In this document: in pieces, positions 2,419 to 15,782 of the stretch
How positions within the stretch are numbered: position 1 is the first letter of the stretch
How the letters are laid out: the number at the start of each line of letters is the position of its first letter
From: an uncultured Bacillota bacterium
GTDB taxonomy: Bacteria > Bacillota_I > Bacilli_A > RF39 > UBA660
DNA: 64,000 nt
Assembly: GCA_905205665.1 (NCBI GenBank)
Contig: CAJLEF010000005.1
Location: 25,266 to 89,265, forward strand
Direction of reading: 5' to 3'
Made by a program: the position numbers and the translations under genes
The notes under the pieces: model-generated
The model's input: only the letters and a program-made list of their open reading frames with translations
What the model was told of the DNA's origin: nothing
Databases searched by the model: none

Positions 2419-3693
2419 ATGTTTGTGGATATTGTAAAAATGAAATTAATTGCTGGCAAAGGAGGAGATGGATGTACCTCTTTTCGAAGAGAAAAATATA
2501 TTCCTATGGGAGGACCGGATGGCGGTTCTGGTGGCAAGGGAGGCGACATCGTCTTTGTATGTGATGAAAGCCTAAAAACTCTAGTTGATTTAAAATATCA
2601 TAAAATCGTGAAAGCAACTAAGGGTGAAAATGGTAAAGGCAAAAATAGACGTGGTGCTAATGCGGAAGATATTATTATTAAAGTACCCGTTGGCACGACT
2701 ATTTTTGATGATGATACAGGTTTAGTAATTGCTGATTTATTAGAAGATAAAGAAGAAGTTATTGTTGCCCATGGAGGCCGTGGGGGAAGAGGAAATACCG
2801 CTTTTGCTACTCATGAAAAACCTGCTCCAGAATTTTCAGAATTAGGAGAACCTGGTGAAATCCGTTATATTAAGTGTGAATTAAAACTTTTGGCAGATGT
2901 CGGACTTGTTGGTATGCCAAGTGTTGGTAAAAGCACTATTTTAAATGCCGTTACAAGTGCGAATCCTAAGATTGCTAGCTATCACTTTACAACATTAAGT
3001 CCTAACTTAGGTGTGGTTACTTTAAAAGACAAATCTTCTTTTGTTTTAGCTGATCTACCAGGTATGATTGAAGGAGCTAGTAAAGGAGTAGGACTTGGAC
3101 TTGACTTTCTAAGACATGCTTCTCGTTGCCTTATTTTAGCTCATGTGATTGATATGGGAAGTGAAGAAGGTAGAAATCCTATTTCGGATTATGAAATTAT
3201 TCGTAAGGAAATCGTGAGTTATAGCGATGCTTTAGCCAATAAAAAAGAAATTATTTTAGCTAACAAAAAAGATTTACCCACTTATGAGGAAAATCTAAAG
3301 AAATTTAAAGCAAAATATCCTGATAAAGACATCTTTGAAATAAGTGGCCTTACTCATGAAGGTTTAGATGAATTAATGCTTTATTTAAAAAAGACAATTG
3401 ATACTTTACCTAAAAGCGAAGTTTATAAAAATGATGATTTTGAATCTACCGTGATTTATCGTTTTAAAAATGAAAAACCATACACCATTACTAAAGAAGA
3501 TGGCATATGGGTTATTCGAGGCGAAGAAATTGCTAAATTATTCCAAATGACTCGTTTTGAAGAAAAAGAAGCTGTTTTACGGTTTGGACGTAAATTAAAA
3601 GGCATGGGGATTGATGATGAATTAGAACGTCTAGGAGCCAAAAGAGGCGACGAAGTTCAAATCATGGATTATATTTTTGAATTTAAGGAATAA
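2419..3693 (+). CDS. obg: GTPase Obg (CgtA).
   Basis: N-terminal MFVDIVK...GGDGG glycine-rich Obg fold, with G motifs GMPSVGKST, DLPG and NKKD. Confidence 0.9.
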   Translation: MFVDIVKMKLIAGKGGDGCTSFRREKYIPMGGPDGGSGGKGGDIVFVCDESLKTLVDLKYHKIVKATKGENGKGKNRRGANAEDIIIKVPVGTTIFDDDTGLVIADLLEDKEEVIVAHGGRGGRGNTAFATHEKPAPEFSELGEPGEIRYIKCELKLLADVGLVGMPSVGKSTILNAVTSANPKIASYHFTTLSPNLGVVTLKDKSSFVLADLPGMIEGASKGVGLGLDFLRHASRCLILAHVIDMGSEEGRNPISDYEIIRKEIVSYSDALANKKEIILANKKDLPTYEENLKKFKAKYPDKDIFEISGLTHEGLDELMLYLKKTIDTLPKSEVYKNDDFESTVIYRFKNEKPYTITKEDGIWVIRGEEIAKLFQMTRFEEKEAVLRFGRKLKGMGIDDELERLGAKRGDEVQIMDYIFEFKE

Positions 3694-8707: not shown

Positions 8708-8741
8708 GTGTGATATAATATAATTTAGAAAGGTGATTATT

Positions 8742-9341
8742 ATGGAAGACAATGTTAAAACTTATTATATTAACCGCTTTGGTTTACCAGATGAGTATGG
8801 TGAGTTAAAAAACGGTCTAGAAGTAAAACAAATTATTTTGAAAATCTTATATGCAAGCGATTATACTAATGCTTTAAATTCATTTATTGAATTATATTAT
8901 GCTTGCCATAAAAGCATGAAAAGATTAAATCAAATACTTGATATACCTATGAGAAATTGCAAAATCAAAGATATGCCTATTATTCAAAAATTATTACGCG
9001 ATTTCAATCCTAATAATATTATGAAAATAGATGCTGTGGTTGGTATGGCAGACGTAGGAAGCTCATTAAGAGAAAGAGCAATTTATAAAGCAGATATCTT
9101 TTACATATCTTGTGAAGGTAAAACCGATGGAGAAATTCTAGCTATTTATAAAGACCGAAGAGAAATTTATCGTCAAATTAATCAAGCTATTTTAAATCAA
9201 GATAAAGCCTTTTTAAAAGAAAATATTGATTTAATTTTATCAATGCCATGTTATAGATGGAGCCTTTCTTACTTTTCTTTAACGAATAGTGAATTAGAAC
9301 CAAACACTTCTATTCTTTCCAGAAAAAAAGAAAGTAAGTAA
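8742..9341 (+). CDS. Hypothetical protein where mutL would be expected.
   Basis: An AAAGGTGA ribosome-binding site precedes the ATG at 8742. No recognisable motifs. Confidence 0.4.
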   Translation: MEDNVKTYYINRFGLPDEYGELKNGLEVKQIILKILYASDYTNALNSFIELYYACHKSMKRLNQILDIPMRNCKIKDMPIIQKLLRDFNPNNIMKIDAVVGMADVGSSLRERAIYKADIFYISCEGKTDGEILAIYKDRREIYRQINQAILNQDKAFLKENIDLILSMPCYRWSLSYFSLTNSELEPNTSILSRKKESK

Positions 9342-9382: not shown

Positions 9383-10204
9383 TCAGGATAAATGTTTATT
9401 GATTTTTTCTAAGGTTAATGTTTCATTTAAAAAATCATCAATTAAAAACTCTGGAATTTTACTTCCAACTAATTCATAAAGATCAACATCATCAGGATTA
9501 TCCAAAAAGCTATCAATATATTCCCGAGATAATAATTCAATAACTAAAACACTTAAAGAAAAGTCAGTTAATCTTTGATAATTTTCGTTTGGCTTGGCAG
9601 AATAAATGGCTGAATGTCCATCAATATCAATAATTTCTGGATGAAAATTTCGGGTAAGTAAAATATTGGTGTTTTTACTTTCTTTAGTAGGATGTTGACA
9701 CAAATCAATATGATAAACATTATGATCAGTTAATTCTTTTACTTCTTTTAAGATTTCTTTCACAATTTTAAGACGCCATTTATAAATAGGAATATTCATC
9801 ACATCATAAATATTTATAGCAGGTTTATGATAATGCAACGAACATCCTCTTATTTTGCCATCTAAATAGATAGGTTTTTGAGGAAGTCTAGTTAAATGGA
9901 TATCTTTTTGAAGTTCAATAGCTTTAATAATAGATTCTTCTCTAGCTAAACGAACACCTTCTGCATCAAAATATTGTATAGCTCGCTCTTTTACACCAGT
10001 ATTTGTAACATTTTTGACAGGAGTTATATTGACACCATCTTCATCCACGATGATATTTCGAATATTTACTTGCATATAATCAGAACTGCTATGATAAATT
10101 TTAAGTAACTCATCATTACTATATTGATAAATTGTTCCTTCGGTGCCTTTACCAATTATTTTAAGTTTTTCTAAATCGTTCTTTGTAATTTCAATTTTAT
10201 CCAT
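9383..10204 (-). CDS. Protein-kinase-like (aminoglycoside phosphotransferase/CotS-like fold) protein.
   Basis: Gly-rich loop IIGKGTEGTIY followed by a Lys, an HIDLCQH catalytic-loop-like segment and an IIDIDGH DFG/IDWE-like segment. Monocistronic. Confidence 0.35.
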   Translation of the reverse strand: MDKIEITKNDLEKLKIIGKGTEGTIYQYSNDELLKIYHSSSDYMQVNIRNIIVDEDGVNITPVKNVTNTGVKERAIQYFDAEGVRLAREESIIKAIELQKDIHLTRLPQKPIYLDGKIRGCSLHYHKPAINIYDVMNIPIYKWRLKIVKEILKEVKELTDHNVYHIDLCQHPTKESKNTNILLTRNFHPEIIDIDGHSAIYSAKPNENYQRLTDFSLSVLVIELLSREYIDSFLDNPDDVDLYELVGSKIPEFLIDDFLNETLTLEKINKHLS

Positions 10205-10268: not shown

Positions 10269-10297
10269 TTGACACTTAATTTACACAAAAATATAGT
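10269..10297 (+). promoter_or_regulatory. Sigma-A-type promoter for the nusB operon.
   Basis: TTGACA-17 nt-TATAGT. Confidence 0.5.
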
Positions 10298-10391: not shown

Positions 10392-10787
10392 ATGCTTAAT
10401 AGAAGTGAAGCACGTAAAGTTTGTATGACATGTTTGTATCAAATTGATATTTTAAGACAAAACAAACTTCCTATTAATGTTGATGAAATTTTAAAAGATA
10501 ATTTAGAAATTGAAAATGATTTTGTATCAGAAATTGTTAATGGTGTCACTGACCACCTAGACGAGATTGACAAATTATGTAATTCTTATTTGAGCAATTG
10601 GAAAATAAATCGTTTAGATAAAGCTGGCGCTAATATTTTAAGAATGGCTTTTTACGAACTTAAATATATGGATACTCCTGCTATTGTCGTTATAAATGAA
10701 GCGGTGGAACTTGCTAAGACTTATACCGATAAAGAACTTGCTGATATGATTAATGCTTCTTTAGATAAATTTGTTAAGGAGTCCTAA
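10392..10787 (+). CDS. nusB: Transcription antitermination factor NusB.
   Basis: 131-aa NusB-like sequence, positioned upstream of xseAB as in Bacillus. Confidence 0.75.
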   Translation: MLNRSEARKVCMTCLYQIDILRQNKLPINVDEILKDNLEIENDFVSEIVNGVTDHLDEIDKLCNSYLSNWKINRLDKAGANILRMAFYELKYMDTPAIVVINEAVELAKTYTDKELADMINASLDKFVKES

Positions 10788-11782
10788 TGGAAGTTGATAA
10801 TGGAATTGTAAGTCTTAAAAGTATAGTTCCAAATTGGCAAAAAGCTATTAAAAATAACACAGTTATTCCAAATGATCTATGTGGCAGTTATTATACAGGT
10901 TATTGGTTAAATGATATTGAAGGAGAAAATTATTTTTTAAAAATTTCTAAAAAAACAGGTATTTCCAAAGAAATATTTATTCAAATTATTGGAGAAGAAT
11001 TAGCAAGAATGGTTGGTATTGAAACGGTTCATTCTAAAATTGTTGATGTTGGCTCAAATACTTATGGTTTGATGTCGTCAAACTACATTAAATATGACGA
11101 CAACATTTTATCAGGCAAAGAAATTGTTATTGATTACTTACAACACTTATATTCTAATGATCTATTACATTTGTGGTTAGATATGCCATTAACCATGGAA
11201 GAAAAAGAGGATTTTCATGATGGCTACTTAGAAGGAATGATGGAAGCATTTAATTGTCGCCATGTAAATTGTAATTCTTTAAATTTTATTTGGGATGCCT
11301 TAAGTTTTCAATTCAGAAATAAAGAAAATGGCCAAATTATTACTGAAAGAATTGTCAAAGATTTAACGAAACGTTATTTGTTTTCATTTATGATAATGAA
11401 TAAAGATTTCCATCTTAAAAATTGGGAAATAATAGATATTTACGGTAATTATACTTTGTCTCCTTTGTATGATATTGATCTTAGTTTTGATCGTAATTTC
11501 ACAAATTTAGATAAAAATAATTCTATGAAATCTTATGAAAATAATATCGAAAATATTTATGAAGACTTTGAACAATATTTTTCTTCATCATCGGATGATT
11601 TTAAAAAAGAATTTTATCGTCAACAGAATATTTTAACACCTGAAAATGTTCAAGAAGCGATGGAACGTATTATAAACATTTATCAAAATGATAACTTAAA
11701 AAAATACGCTGAACAAATTTTAAAAGTTTACATTCCTCATTATGAGCAAATGTGTAGTTTAGCAAAGGATCGTGAGTTATGA
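10787..11782 (+). CDS. HipA-like Ser/Thr kinase family protein.
   Basis: MNKDFHLKN fits the HipA catalytic pattern N-x-D-x-H-x-K-N. LSPLYDIDLS resembles the HipA (L)APAYDL segment. The start overlaps the nusB stop (TAATG) with an internal AAGGAG ribosome-binding site, and the stop overlaps the xseA start (ATGA). Confidence 0.5.
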   Translation: MEVDNGIVSLKSIVPNWQKAIKNNTVIPNDLCGSYYTGYWLNDIEGENYFLKISKKTGISKEIFIQIIGEELARMVGIETVHSKIVDVGSNTYGLMSSNYIKYDDNILSGKEIVIDYLQHLYSNDLLHLWLDMPLTMEEKEDFHDGYLEGMMEAFNCRHVNCNSLNFIWDALSFQFRNKENGQIITERIVKDLTKRYLFSFMIMNKDFHLKNWEIIDIYGNYTLSPLYDIDLSFDRNFTNLDKNNSMKSYENNIENIYEDFEQYFSSSSDDFKKEFYRQQNILTPENVQEAMERIINIYQNDNLKKYAEQILKVYIPHYEQMCSLAKDREL

Positions 11783-13125
11783 TTCCAAAATATTTAAGTG
11801 TTGCTGAGGTTAATAATTATATTAAAAATATTTTTGATACAAATACTTTTCTAAAGAAGGTTTATTTAAAAGGAGAAATTAGTAATTTTAAACATCATTC
11901 TTCTGGGCATCTTTATTTAACGCTTAAAGATGACGAATCAAGAATCAGTGCTATTATGTTTAAAAGTGCGGCTTCTACTTTAAATTTTAAACCAGAAGAT
12001 GGTATGAATGTTTTAGTGACAGGTCGTATTTCTGTCTATCCTATGGGTGGAAACTACCAAATATATATTGAAAAAATGGAAATGGATGGCTTAGGAAATC
12101 TATATATAGAATTTGAAAAGTTAAAAAAGAAACTAGCCAGTGAAGGCTTATTTGACCCAAAATATAAAAAGCCAATTCCGAAATATCCTACTAAGATAGG
12201 TATTATTACCGCTCCAACAGGTGCAGCTATTAAAGATATTTTAAGTACTTTAAAAAGAAGATTTCCATATGCTAAAACACTTCTTTTTCCAAGTTTAGTT
12301 CAAGGAGTTTCAGCCGCCGAAGATGTAGCTAAAAATATTGCCTTAGCCAATCATTACAATTTAGATGTTTTAATCGTTGGCCGTGGTGGAGGTTCCATTG
12401 AAGATTTATGGGCTTTTAACGAAGAAATTGTTGCAAGAGCTATTTTTGCTTCTAAAATACCTATTATTAGTGCCGTTGGTCACGAGATTGATTTTACAAT
12501 TGCAGATTATGTGGCTGATAGAAGAGCTCCGACTCCAACAGGAGCTGCCGAAATGGCCGTGCCAACCAAAGAAGAAGTTATGACAATATTGACGCAAAAG
12601 AAAGAAGAAATTAATCACTTATTCTTATCTAAACTTCAAACGGCTAAACATCAGCTTAGTATTTTAAGTAACCATTATGTATTAAAAAATCCGCATGTTT
12701 TATATGAAGTAAAAATGCAGAAATTAGATAATTTGACAGATAATTTAAATAAAAGTTATATCTATTACTTAAATTCATTACAAGTAAAATTAGATAAGTA
12801 TAAAGATAATTATATTTTGAACAATCCTAAGGTTCTTTATCAAAAATCTTTAGAAAGATATTCAGATATCAAAGAGTCTTTACAAAAAGAAATTATTAAA
12901 TACATGAATGATAAGAAGCAATTACTTTATTATACGATTCAAAGTTTAAAATTACTTAATCCATTAAATATCTTAGAACAAGGATATTCTATTGTCAAAA
13001 AAGATAACGAAATTGTTAAAAATACTAATAAAATTAATATAAACGATAAATTAGATGTTACCTTAGCAAAAGGAACATTAAAAGTGAAAGTAGAGGAGAT
13101 AAATTATGAAAGAAATGACGTTTGA
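11779..13125 (+). CDS. xseA: Exodeoxyribonuclease VII large subunit.
   Basis: N-terminal OB fold, a catalytic domain with GRGGGS, and a C-terminal coiled region. Confidence 0.85.
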   Translation: MIPKYLSVAEVNNYIKNIFDTNTFLKKVYLKGEISNFKHHSSGHLYLTLKDDESRISAIMFKSAASTLNFKPEDGMNVLVTGRISVYPMGGNYQIYIEKMEMDGLGNLYIEFEKLKKKLASEGLFDPKYKKPIPKYPTKIGIITAPTGAAIKDILSTLKRRFPYAKTLLFPSLVQGVSAAEDVAKNIALANHYNLDVLIVGRGGGSIEDLWAFNEEIVARAIFASKIPIISAVGHEIDFTIADYVADRRAPTPTGAAEMAVPTKEEVMTILTQKKEEINHLFLSKLQTAKHQLSILSNHYVLKNPHVLYEVKMQKLDNLTDNLNKSYIYYLNSLQVKLDKYKDNYILNNPKVLYQKSLERYSDIKESLQKEIIKYMNDKKQLLYYTIQSLKLLNPLNILEQGYSIVKKDNEIVKNTNKININDKLDVTLAKGTLKVKVEEINYERNDV

Positions 13126-13360
13126 GACCGCTTTAAATAATTTAGATGGCATCATTAAAGATTTAGAAAATGGCAACATTCCTTTAGAAGATGCCATCAG
13201 TAAATATACAGACGCTATGAATTTAGTTAAAATATGTCAAGAAAAATTGGATAATGCCACCGAGCAGGTGAATAAAATCATCGGAACAGACGGTGAAGTG
13301 AAAGACTTTTTAATGAAAGAAGATGAGACAAATGAGCAAACTAGTAACGAAAATAACTGA
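13106..13360 (+). CDS. xseB: Exodeoxyribonuclease VII small subunit.
   Basis: 84-aa XseB-like sequence overlapping the end of xseA. Confidence 0.75.
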   Translation: MKEMTFETALNNLDGIIKDLENGNIPLEDAISKYTDAMNLVKICQEKLDNATEQVNKIIGTDGEVKDFLMKEDETNEQTSNENN

Positions 13361-14750
13361 TCGAGATACTGATTTTTCCACATGGTATACAGATGTTTTA
13401 AAACAAGCGGATTTAGTAAGTTATTCTAGTGTCAAAGGAAGTATGATTATTCGTCCTTATGGCTACGCGATTTGGGAAAACATGCAAAGAATATTAGATA
13501 AAGAATTTAAAAAATTAGGTCATCAAAATGTCCAAATGCCCATGTTTATTCCTGAATCTTTATTAAATGTAGAGAAAGAACATGTTAAAGGTTTTGCTCC
13601 TGAAGTAGCCTGGGTAACTTATGGTGGAGAAAATAAATTAGATGAAAGAATGTGTGTCAGACCTACGAGTGAAGTTTTATTTTGTGAACACTTCAAAAAT
13701 ATTGTAAAGTCCTATCGTGATTTGCCACTTTTATATAATCAGTGGTGTACGATTGTTCGTTGGGAAAAAACAACAAGACCTTTTTTAAGAAGTAGAGAAA
13801 TACTATGGCAAGAAGGTCATACTCTTCATAGAACTCGTGAAGAAGCTAGAAATGAAACACTTAGAATGTTTAAAGTTTATGAAGATTTTCAAAGAAATAT
13901 CCTTGCTTTACCCGTTATTACAGGACGTAAAACAGAAAAAGAAAAATTTGCTGGAGCAGAAGAAACCTATACAATTGAAGCCATGATGTATGATGGAGTA
14001 GCACTTCAAAATGGGACGAGTCATTATTTTGGACAACATTTTGCTAAAGCTTTTGGTATTCAATTTCTAGATACTGATAATACTTTAAAAACACCTTATC
14101 AAACAAGCTGGGGTGTGACTACAAGAATGATTGGTGCCATTATCATGACTCATGGTGATAATCATGGACTTGTTTTACCTCCTAATATTGCTCCTACTAA
14201 AATTGTGTTTATTCCTATTGGTAAAGAGGATGAAGTTTTAAATACCGTAAAAGAATTAGCAAATACTCTTCCTGAAGAAATCACTTATCAAATTGATGAT
14301 TCTGAAAAATCACCAGGATTTAAATTTGCAGATGCAGAAGTAAAAGGTATTCCTATTCGCGTGGAAATAGGTAAAAGAGATTTAGAAAATAACGAAATTA
14401 CTTTAGTAAGAAGAGATACTTTAGAAAAAGAAACGATTTCTATTCCTGCTTTTAAAGAAAGAGTAGAAAAGCTATTAGTTGAAATTCAAAATAATATGTA
14501 TGATAGAGCTTTAAAAAGACGTGACAGCATGATTTATGAAGCAAAAACGAAAGAAGAATTTCAAGATATTGCTCAAAATAAACCAGGTTTCATTTTAATT
14601 CCTTGGTGTGGAAATACTTCTTGTGAAGATAAAATTAAAGAAGAAACAGGTTTAAAAAGTCGTTGTATTAAAGAAGAAATTAGTGATGGCGTTTGTACAT
14701 ACTGTGGTGAAAAAGCTAAATATAAAATCTATTTTGGTAAACAATACTAA
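13323..14750 (+). CDS. proS: Prolyl-tRNA synthetase (class II, archaeal/eukaryotic-like type with a C-terminal Cys cluster).
   Basis: Class II motifs plus a C-terminal CGNTSCEDK...CTYCGEKA cluster. The start may instead be the MSKLV methionine at 13335. Confidence 0.85.
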   Translation: MRQMSKLVTKITDRDTDFSTWYTDVLKQADLVSYSSVKGSMIIRPYGYAIWENMQRILDKEFKKLGHQNVQMPMFIPESLLNVEKEHVKGFAPEVAWVTYGGENKLDERMCVRPTSEVLFCEHFKNIVKSYRDLPLLYNQWCTIVRWEKTTRPFLRSREILWQEGHTLHRTREEARNETLRMFKVYEDFQRNILALPVITGRKTEKEKFAGAEETYTIEAMMYDGVALQNGTSHYFGQHFAKAFGIQFLDTDNTLKTPYQTSWGVTTRMIGAIIMTHGDNHGLVLPPNIAPTKIVFIPIGKEDEVLNTVKELANTLPEEITYQIDDSEKSPGFKFADAEVKGIPIRVEIGKRDLENNEITLVRRDTLEKETISIPAFKERVEKLLVEIQNNMYDRALKRRDSMIYEAKTKEEFQDIAQNKPGFILIPWCGNTSCEDKIKEETGLKSRCIKEEISDGVCTYCGEKAKYKIYFGKQY

Positions 14751-14795: not shown

Positions 14796-15782
14796 CTAAT
14801 TTTTTAAGAGATTATCTCCTGTTTCTAGCATCGTTGTAATAAATATTCCATAACCAGTAATAGGATTATCTGTAATAACATGGGTTACAGCTCCAATAAT
14901 TTTCCCATTTTGAACAATAGGAGAACCACTCATTCCTTGAACAATTCCACCAGCGGTATTAATAAGGTTATCGTCTGTCACGGTAAAAGAAATATTTTTA
15001 ACATCATTATATTCTTGCAAAGAGGTAATATCAATTTTATAACTTTTTTTCTCTTGACCGTTTAAAACAGTGTAGATTTCGGCTTCACCAATTTTAATTT
15101 CTTCGTTTTTAGCTACAGGCATAAAATTAGTAGGGATGGTATCTTCATAAATCCCGTATATTCCGTGTCTAGTATTATTATTTAAAGAGCCATATACTTT
15201 ATTAAAGTGAAATTCGGCATTTTTTTCCCCAGCATTACCTCTTGTGCTTTTACGAATACTTGTCACGGGACTTTCAAAAATATGACCTGTTTTCACTTCT
15301 ACTAATTGTAGACTGTTACTTTCTAAGATTTCGTGACCTAAAGCACCATATATTTTACTGTCAGGATCAATATAAGTTAATGTGCCAAGTCCTGTAATAC
15401 TTTCTTTGACATAAAGACCTGTCTTGTAAATACCATCAACATTTTGAAGAGGCATTGTAATATTCATGATTTGTTCATTTCTTTTTAAAGTTAATTTTAC
15501 TTGATCATCTTTAACATTTTGTAAAATAGCTTCACTTAAAGAATTAACAGAGGAAATCACGGTATCACCAACTTTTAAAATATAGTCGCCAATTTTAATT
15601 TCTGGCGTTCCCTTTAAATAAGAACCATTTACTTTATAAAACCCAACTACTAATACACCTGGTGTTTTTATTTGAATGCCTATATTTTCACCACCAAGTA
15701 CTACTTTATCAGAATAGGCGAGTGTTACACTTGGAAAAAGAAAATAAAGAAATAAGAACATGCTTAAATAAAACTTTTTCAA
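14796..15782 (-). CDS. SpoIVB-like S55 serine peptidase (PDZ plus peptidase domains).
   Basis: N-terminal signal/TM segment, and the catalytic serine motif GMSGSPIV near the C-terminus. Confidence 0.6.
   Translation of the reverse strand: MKKFYLSMFLFLYFLFPSVTLAYSDKVVLGGENIGIQIKTPGVLVVGFYKVNGSYLKGTPEIKIGDYILKVGDTVISSVNSLSEAILQNVKDDQVKLTLKRNEQIMNITMPLQNVDGIYKTGLYVKESITGLGTLTYIDPDSKIYGALGHEILESNSLQLVEVKTGHIFESPVTSIRKSTRGNAGEKNAEFHFNKVYGSLNNNTRHGIYGIYEDTIPTNFMPVAKNEEIKIGEAEIYTVLNGQEKKSYKIDITSLQEYNDVKNISFTVTDDNLINTAGGIVQGMSGSPIVQNGKIIGAVTHVITDNPITGYGIFITTMLETGDNLLKN

Follow-up and report, generated by a model that had tools for sequence, protein, structure and literature searches.

A HipA/CtkA-fold kinase encoded between nusB and xseA in uncultured Bacilli: a probable resident orphan kinase

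HipA-fold kinases are known as toxins that act in persistence and toxin–antitoxin systems, such as HipA and HipT, or as a secreted effector, CtkA. Here, we describe a 331-amino-acid member of this fold whose gene lies between nusB and xseA in a 64,000-nucleotide stretch of DNA from an uncultured Bacillota bacterium (contig CAJLEF010000005.1). The complete stretch is referred to as the window and the protein as the window kinase. The evidence presented below makes it probable that this protein is a vertically inherited, resident, orphan Ser/Thr kinase that acts alone, in a CtkA-like manner, on an endogenous target and does not form part of a toxin–antitoxin module.

The Hip families are defined by their toxin–antitoxin gene context (Gerdes et al., 2021; PMC8262856), and wherever the cellular target of a Hip toxin is known, it is an aminoacyl-tRNA synthetase that becomes phosphorylated (Table 1 of PMC8262856). 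HipA itself, the type II toxin of the hipBA module (Escherichia coli K-12, Shewanella oneidensis), is a protein of ~440 amino acids (aa) with an N-terminal lid subdomain, which phosphorylates GltX and is neutralized by the helix-turn-helix (HTH) protein HipB. HipT, the kinase of the HipBST system (Legionella pneumophila Lpg2370, PDB 7VKB and 8EZR; E. coli O127), is a short core kinase that lacks the N-subdomain-1 of HipA. Its antitoxin HipS is encoded upstream together with HipB, its Gly-rich loop contains autophosphorylated serines, and its target is TrpS (PMC8262856). HipH (YjjJ) is a monocistronic Hip kinase without a separate antitoxin gene; its N terminus forms an HTH domain of ~100 aa, and serines close to its Gly-rich loop are conserved. 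CtkA of Helicobacter pylori (JHP0940; PDB 3AKJ, 3AKK and 3AKL), finally, is a stand-alone Ser/Thr kinase that is carried as cargo by the integrative conjugative element (ICE) tfs3, acts on host cells and possesses a disordered, positively charged C-terminal tail that presumably signals type IV secretion (PMC5536186).

The window kinase resembles each of these proteins in part. With HipA, it shares membership in the HipA_C family, the fold (4PU5, E=1.4e-6; 3TPV, E=5.7e-5), the catalytic Asp and Asn residues and the Mg-binding Asp, and with HipT the short core architecture and a near-identical catalytic loop (D-[FM]-H-L-K-N) followed by SP-x-YD. Unlike HipT, however, it is not accompanied by HipS or HipB, its Gly-rich region is not conserved and its upstream gene is nusB; it lacks a separate antitoxin gene, as does HipH, but has no HTH domain. 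The best match by both profile and fold is CtkA, which likewise comprises only the core kinase (325 aa) and whose D-x-H-x-x-N-W and P-x-[YF]-D motifs can be aligned with those of the window kinase, placing D155 and D179 of CtkA opposite D207 and D229. Nevertheless, the window kinase is not a close homolog of CtkA, the two proteins being only 9-12% identical over their structural alignment, whereas the reported Enterococcus and Clostridium homologs of CtkA are ~50% identical to it. Moreover, its C terminus is helical up to residue 326 in a confident structural model and ends with KDREL, in contrast to the disordered, basic tail of CtkA, and its gene is vertically inherited in a chromosomal housekeeping operon rather than located on tfs3. 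The window kinase thus represents a novel variant of the HipA/CtkA kinase superfamily that does not belong to HipA, HipT, HipH or CtkA proper, and its nearest characterized relative is CtkA, not the HipA toxin. No description of a nusB–kinase–xseA arrangement was found in the literature on HipA with nusB and xseA, or on CtkA with HipA.

Fold, family and active site

Pfam places the window kinase in the HipA_C family (PF07804), with a score of 38.5 bits against a curated cut-off of 30.5 (E=1.3e-9; residues 188-295), a model that is also matched by 47 of 80 aligned family members. The initial annotation, made from the sequence alone, had proposed a HipA-family kinase homolog on the basis of a 331-aa open reading frame (ORF) with the elements NKDFHLKN and LSPLYDIDLS. 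The ORF and both elements are present as described, and the HipA_C score above threshold, together with Foldseek matches to CtkA, HipA and HipT, bears out the family assignment; the opposite outcome, placement in a non-kinase family, is directly contradicted by the Pfam result. HipA_N and Couple_hipA gave no Pfam match at E<=1 in the window kinase, and the NCBIfam YjjJ model reached E=0.027 and 13 bits, with a cut-off of 401. When the PDB was searched with the single sequence, Legionella HipT (7VKB, 8EZR) was the best match (E=1e-4) and E. coli HipA marginal, with CtkA not listed at E<=10 in this phmmer search. A profile of the 80 family members, by comparison, recovered CtkA over both lobes (E=2e-11) and HipT (2e-7) but barely detected E. 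coli HipA (0.065).

The initial annotation had suggested a structure prediction combined with a fold search, and the results of both agree with the profile comparison. An AlphaFold2 model based on the family alignment showed very high confidence (pLDDT 95.8, pTM 0.93), and its first seven Foldseek matches in the PDB were all CtkA chains (E=9e-9 to 1e-7, TM 0.46-0.60), followed by Shewanella HipA and Legionella HipT (~1e-6), then E. coli HipA and, after these, the kinase domains of mTOR, PI3K and PI4K. The N-terminal subdomain-1 (~100 aa) of HipA proper (clade I, ~440 aa) is not present in the 331-aa protein, whose first core beta-hairpin begins at around residue 26-36 of the model, and the Foldseek alignment spans only ~40% of the length of HipA (TMt 0.37-0.45). 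A fold search of BFVD returned only weak matches to large multidomain proteins (PI3/4-kinase-like, CotH; TM <=0.45). Taken together, the Pfam, profile and fold evidence identifies the window protein as a core-only HipA/CtkA-fold kinase.

The matches to lipid kinase domains raise the question of whether the protein could instead be a small-molecule or lipid kinase with a PI3K/PI4K-like HipA fold, acting as a metabolic enzyme in the nusB–xseA slot that is presumably filled by folD in Bacillus subtilis. Such an enzyme could account for the Foldseek similarity to PI4KII-alpha, PI3K and mTOR (E ~1e-4), for the Pfam PI3_PI4_kinase matches of three family members, for the catalytic loop of the wider family, DRHxxN, which is as in PI3/4-kinases, and for the lack of a conserved Gly-rich loop or autophosphorylation site. 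However, the top sequence and fold matches are the protein kinases CtkA, HipA and HipT, none of the contexts examined links the kinase to genes of a metabolic pathway, and aminoglycoside and macrolide phosphotransferases reach TM values of only ~0.25-0.28, so that we consider this explanation improbable. An antibiotic phosphotransferase (APH or MPH) was rejected as a candidate on the same TM values. To our knowledge, every characterized HipA-fold enzyme is a protein Ser/Thr kinase, and the substrate of the window kinase is therefore presumably a protein.

The family to which the window kinase belongs is sparsely represented in word-indexed searches, with just four relatives among 5.8 billion proteins. 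When 1.84 billion cluster representatives were searched exhaustively with HMMER, by contrast, 293 relatives emerged at E<=1e-3, nearly all of them 280-350 aa in length. They form a family of unnamed ~300-330-aa proteins from uncultured low-GC gut and rumen Bacilli, designated 'hypothetical protein [Bacilli bacterium]' at NCBI. In an alignment of 80 sequences with a mean identity to the window kinase of ~20%, exactly four columns are invariant: K52, D207, N212 and D229, which represent the ATP-binding lysine, the catalytic aspartate, the catalytic-loop asparagine and the Mg-binding aspartate. The same four residues are kept in the additional nusB-linked genes, and the N terminus is conserved from M1. 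The N-x-D-x-H-x-K-N pattern on which the initial annotation relied is therefore conserved only in part. Its core, D207 and N212, is found in all 80 sequences, whereas H209 is present in 54 and K211 in nine of them, and position 205 is mostly occupied by Q instead of N. As a consequence, the family consensus reads Q-x-D-R-H-x-x-N-W-E-I ... P-x-Y-D-N-E and resembles CtkA or PI3/4-kinases more closely.

The window kinase itself contains the catalytic motif of Hip kinases, D-x-H-x-x-N (Gerdes et al., 2021; PMC8262856), with D207 aligning to D155 of CtkA (DRHNGN) and to the DMHLKN loop of HipT. It also contains their Mg2+-binding motif, with D229 of SPLYD aligning to HipT SPAYD and CtkA APIFD179. 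At the sequence level, a conserved Gly-rich loop with an adjacent autophosphorylated Ser/Thr residue is missing: the corresponding segment, CGSYYTGYW (residues 32-40), aligns to GANGNK of CtkA and is gapped and variable across the family, with G33 present in 15 and G38 in 17 of the 80 sequences. Two of the four Hip motifs, catalytic and Mg-binding, are thus represented. Judged from these residues, the protein is apparently a catalytically competent protein kinase with an intact predicted active site. The divergent Gly-rich loop and the fact that H209 is not universal could also be expected of an inactive pseudokinase or a decaying remnant, but given the four residues invariant in 80/80 sequences, an ORF that is intact in all loci, dN/dS values of 0.06-0.24 and a kinase fold predicted with very high confidence, we regard this idea as hardly credible.

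Gene order, inheritance and further loci of the family

The kinase gene is directly interlocked with both of its neighbors. The TAA stop codon of nusB (10785-10787) and the ATG start codon of the kinase gene (10787-10789) have one base in common (TAATG), an AAGGAG site lies inside nusB, and the TGA stop codon (11780-11782) is overlapped by the ATG start codon of xseA (11779-11781) in an ATGA junction, all as read in the initial annotation. The location within a nusB–xseA–xseB operon also stands, since Pfam confirms the flanking genes, and the operon appears to extend to proS. We propose that nusB, the kinase gene, xseA, xseB and proS are co-transcribed and that the kinase is translationally coupled to both of its neighbors. 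Being coupled to nusB and xseA, it would probably be made whenever these housekeeping genes are made, and a protein co-expressed with nusB and xseAB-proS in this manner would not be a free-running growth-arrest toxin.

The arrangement is not a one-off but a trait shared by an entire clade. A survey of nusB–xseA loci in related genomes, as suggested in the initial annotation, revealed the order nusB–kinase–xseA in ~20 loci (L001-L005, L013-L015, L019, L020-L026, L036-L038 and L040), one of which (L019) comprises the full series mutS–nusB–kinase–xseA–xseB–proS–spoIVB. The nearest genomes are metagenome-assembled genomes (MAGs) of uncultured Bacilli from the Hadza gut, an Erysipelotrichaceae rumen MAG and a roe-deer rumen MAG. 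In every nusB-linked locus, nusB is immediately 5' of the kinase gene, and xseA is located 3' of it wherever the contig reaches far enough. Across the syntenic loci, kinase identity falls from 99% to ~23-28%, whereas MutS remains at 70-100% and, where the kinase has dropped this far, MutS, NusB and XseA are still at 70-79%, 54-65% and 57-78% identity, respectively, indicating that the gene has been kept in place while evolving faster than its neighbors. The kinase ORF is intact in all loci, and its dN/dS values relative to close orthologs are 0.06, 0.11 and 0.24, which, together with the conserved N terminus, marks it as a genuine gene under purifying selection. With a GC content of 26.3%, a GC3 of 18.4% and its codon usage, the gene resembles its neighbors. 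Based on this compositional match and the deep synteny, a recent horizontal insertion was rejected.

In a rough neighbor-joining tree without support values, nusB-linked genes occupy at least four deep branches and genes from elsewhere are nested among them, which suggests that the nusB–xseA junction is the ancestral home of the family. We conclude that this junction is the predominant and probably ancestral locus. In Staphylococcus aureus USA300, nusB and xseA are adjacent (SAUSA300_1473 and SAUSA300_1472; PMC7829806), so that the kinase gene appears to have been inserted into a linkage that is old in Bacilli.

Members of the family are also found in other contexts. P0014, which is 31% identical to the window kinase, is encoded between ruvA and ruvB upstream of queA (L041: ruvA, 946-1506; P0014, 1516-2511; ruvB, 2516-3526), with gaps of 9 and 4 nt, and thus represents a family member inside a second DNA-repair operon. 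P0157 and P0090 are tandem paralogs (L006, 4001-5982; L009, 2976-4957) flanked by a divergent gene for a sigma-70-type factor (264 aa) and, on the opposite side, by a gene for a low-molecular-weight phosphatase (LMWPc), so that this may be a kinase/phosphatase signaling locus. P0160 (L010-L012; e.g., L010, 2078-7273) lies between a RhuM-family gene and a full-length uvrB gene, with a separate 102-aa ResIII/DEAD fragment located upstream of this RhuM–P0160–uvrB array; RhuM and P0160 look like a two-gene cassette whose insertion close to the 5' end of uvrB duplicated the target. P0011 is encoded singly in the vicinity of NUDIX and UDG genes, P0016 is located upstream of mnmA–prfA–tilS–ftsH, and the genes of the L027 and L033 group are monocistronic and situated near HD-domain, YhcG-nuclease or methyladenine-glycosylase genes. 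No HTH, HipB or HipS-like neighbors were found at the non-nusB family loci examined.

Antitoxins, targets and alternative roles

None of the ~25 loci examined contains a HipB, HipS or HTH gene. When the kinase and two ORFs located 5' of nusB, orf202 and orf273, were compared with Pfam, NCBIfam and PADLOC, domains of the HTH or HipS-like type were not found in any of the three. Thus, neither an adjacent antitoxin or regulator (HipB HTH, HipS, HipR, HipN, HipP) nor an HTH domain in cis is present, and the window kinase lacks the toxin–antitoxin context that defines the Hip families (Gerdes et al., 2021). Because its gene overlaps both nusB and xseA, there is no space for a further gene beside it. 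The initial annotation had noted the missing HipB-like antitoxin for this locus, and its observation can be extended to every related locus examined. Its suggestion of a 'domesticated' toxin kinase, however, is not demonstrated by these data: since an antitoxin is lacking for every examined member of the ~300-aa family, toxicity may never have been one of its properties.

A gene considered as a cryptic antitoxin was orf202, a 202-aa ORF (8733-9341, plus strand) between mutS and nusB that has no Pfam, NCBIfam, PADLOC or PDB-profile match. Diverged homologs (23-45% identity) are found in the mutS–nusB gap of five other loci (L003, L005, L023, L024, L026), but orf202 is missing from L004, L019 and L036, all of which still show the order nusB–kinase–xseA. 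It was therefore rejected as an obligatory partner, and the idea of a cryptic antitoxin was not supported.

These data bear on the possibility that the protein is a HipA-type growth-arresting toxin that acts on an aminoacyl-tRNA synthetase and is controlled by autophosphorylation, by a distal antitoxin or by orf202. Its relationship to HipA_C and the similarity of its DFHLKN loop to DMHLKN of HipT would fit such a role, as would the presence of proS at the end of the operon, since the known targets of Hip toxins are aminoacyl-tRNA synthetases. Furthermore, monocistronic Hip kinases such as HipH/YjjJ exist, and orf202, which has no known fold or family, recurs 5' of nusB in several loci. However, an HTH, HipB or HipS gene is absent from all loci examined, three loci do without orf202, the HTH domain in cis of HipH is absent, and the Gly-rich loop and autophosphorylated serine of HipA are not conserved. 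Given its coupling to nusB, the gene should be expressed in growing cells, a poor fit to an unneutralized toxin, and whereas toxin–antitoxin modules are patchily distributed, this gene has long been retained vertically under purifying selection. Considering also that the family is nearer to CtkA than to HipA, we judge a toxin role to be unlikely.

The reading of the window kinase as a resident orphan kinase is strengthened by four contrasts that set its family apart from the toxins and the effector: the lack of an antitoxin in the loci examined, the predicted translational coupling to essential or housekeeping genes, vertical inheritance at one chromosomal junction and recurrence in a second DNA-repair operon. 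Together, they point to a HipA-fold kinase that serves normal cell physiology and is presumably non-toxic at the expression levels of its operon. As family members sit inside the xseAB and ruvAB operons, a DNA-repair or recombination protein is a candidate target. Alternatively, by analogy to HipA (GltX) and HipT (TrpS), the kinase may act on an aminoacyl-tRNA synthetase, such as the putatively co-transcribed prolyl-tRNA synthetase ProRS. It is tempting to speculate, although we offer this broader proposal only tentatively, that the family constitutes a fixed, antitoxin-free housekeeping regulator in core operons (nusB–xseAB–proS and, for a paralog, ruvA–ruvB) across a clade of gut Bacilli, phosphorylating a component of DNA repair and recombination or of transcription and translation, e.g. 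ExoVII, RuvAB, NusB or ProRS.

Several points weigh against the orphan-kinase reading. The N-lobe half of HipA_C is unmatched in the window kinase, and since the region of the Gly-rich loop varies across the family, nucleotides could be bound in an atypical manner. Its activity as a kinase, the class of its substrate and its lack of toxicity are properties that we infer, the operon structure is deduced from gene overlaps and a consensus promoter, and the DNA-repair link is based on few contexts and could be a coincidence. In addition, the kinase evolves faster than its neighbors, showing 28-43% identity where MutS shows 74-79%, a pace that is unusual among core housekeeping genes and could likewise be explained by a role in conflict. 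PADLOC detected a weak similarity to the candidate-defense protein PDC-M03A (E=3e-10), and a comparison with PHROGs a similarity to the phage protein family phrog_8728 (E=7e-7).

The last three observations could be explained if the gene were a conflict gene, i.e. a defense kinase or a selfish element that uses the operon interiors nusB|xseA and ruvA|ruvB as a safe harbor for its expression and retention. The occurrence of the family in several slots, including ruvA|ruvB and the position beside RhuM near a split-looking uvrB, would also be consistent with this notion. PDC-M03A is similar in length (280-305 positions) and resembles the window kinase around the catalytic region, but the match is limited to the catalytic core and the window kinase is encoded in a housekeeping operon. 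Moreover, the PDC-M03 system consists of PDC-M03A and a partner gene, and no defense-system partner is seen here, as orf202 and orf273 lack a PADLOC match and the direct neighbors are nusB and xseA. A search of phage and plasmid collections with tblastn returned no match to the kinase, its composition is native, its dN/dS values are far below 1, and its slot is held across hosts whose MutS proteins have diverged to 70%. A conflict gene is thus very unlikely.

Overall, we regard the case for the orphan kinase as well supported and somewhat surprising for HipA-fold kinases; its function is something that we infer. If correct, it would widen the functional range of the HipA fold and caution against automatically labeling HipA_C matches as toxins. 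It would also provide a tractable entry into the phospho-signaling of uncultured reduced-GC gut Bacilli, as only one gene is involved and its clear catalytic tetrad lends itself to mutant controls. If, in addition, the proposed role as a housekeeping regulator were true, this would be the first HipA-fold kinase with a physiological role that is neither that of a toxin nor that of an effector.

Operon layout and flanking genes

The features of the locus are listed in Table 1. By its position 5' of nusB, the sigma-70-type site is a candidate promoter, from which the kinase would probably be transcribed within nusB–kinase–xseA–xseB–proS; the total number of promoter-like sites in the region is not above shuffle expectation. 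A consensus scan identified no terminator-like sites between 8600 and 16200. The start of proS lies 38 nt inside xseB (13323-13360), so that translation of proS is apparently linked to that of the ExoVII genes and proS seems to lack a leader of its own; an Rfam scan detected no T-box or other Rfam element near proS, and Rfam and tRNA scans found nothing close to the kinase locus. The order xseB–proS is also seen in L019 and L026, and the proS ortholog of L019 contains the domains tRNA-synt_2b, HGTP_anticodon and ProRS-C_1. We conclude that proS is probably the last gene of the kinase operon.

Table 1. Coordinates of genes and predicted sequence elements at the kinase locus (positions refer to the window).
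Feature	Position	Strand	Description	Evidence
Kinase gene, 331 aa	10787..11782	+	HipA/CtkA-fold, core kinase only, without HipA N-subdomain-1	Pfam HipA_C, AlphaFold, Foldseek, dN/dS
nusB, 131 aa	10392..10787	+	First gene of the operon	Pfam NusB E=2.9e-31
AAGGAG ribosome-binding site for the kinase gene	10776..10781	+	Within the 3' end of nusB, 5 nt ahead of the ATG	Read from sequence
xseA	11779..13125	+	Exonuclease VII large subunit	Pfam Exonuc_VII_L E=6.8e-101
xseB	13106..13360	+	Exonuclease VII small subunit, overlaps the end of xseA	Pfam Exonuc_VII_S E=2.3e-17
proS	13323..14750	+	Prolyl-tRNA synthetase, begins within xseB	ORF list
Candidate sigma-70-type promoter, TTGACA-17-TATAGT	10269..10297	+	Intergenic, 5' of nusB; 11/12 matches	Consensus scan
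Codon K52	10940..10942	+	Predicted ATP-binding lysine (YFLK)	80/80 invariant; aligns with the lysine of CtkA YMVK
Catalytic loop N205-K-D207-F-H209-L-K-N212	11399..11422	+	NKDFHLKN, residues 205-212	
Mg-binding segment LSPLYD229IDLS	11456..11485	+	Residues 224-233, counterpart of the kinase DFG motif	

The wider surroundings are of a housekeeping nature, with pfl and the gene for its activase, obg, htpG and mutS upstream, and proS, spoIVB, mnmA, a XerC-like recombinase gene, mgsA, gpsA, gatAB, aspS and asnS downstream. No paralog of the kinase was found within the window.

The second ORF 5' of nusB, orf273, encodes 273 aa (9383-10204, minus strand) and is divergent from the nusB operon. Its product contains protein-kinase-like motifs, GKGTEGTIY...LKIYH, then HIDLCQHPTKESKNTNILL, then IIDIDG, and has no Pfam, PADLOC or PHROG match. 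A profile of three orthologs aligned these motifs with a Legionella Dot/Icm effector (6VVC) at a non-significant E=0.23, and a single-sequence AlphaFold prediction yielded a pLDDT of 31. The gene orf273 is restricted to the closest relatives (L001-L003, L020-L022) and hence does not qualify as an obligatory partner of the HipA-like kinase.

On its downstream side, the operon adjoins a gene for a SpoIVB-type peptidase (14796-15782, minus strand) with Peptidase_S55 and PDZ domains (E=2e-68), whose ortholog in L019 lies on the same strand as the operon. The presence of this peptidase suggests that the low-GC host is spore-forming or descended from spore-formers.

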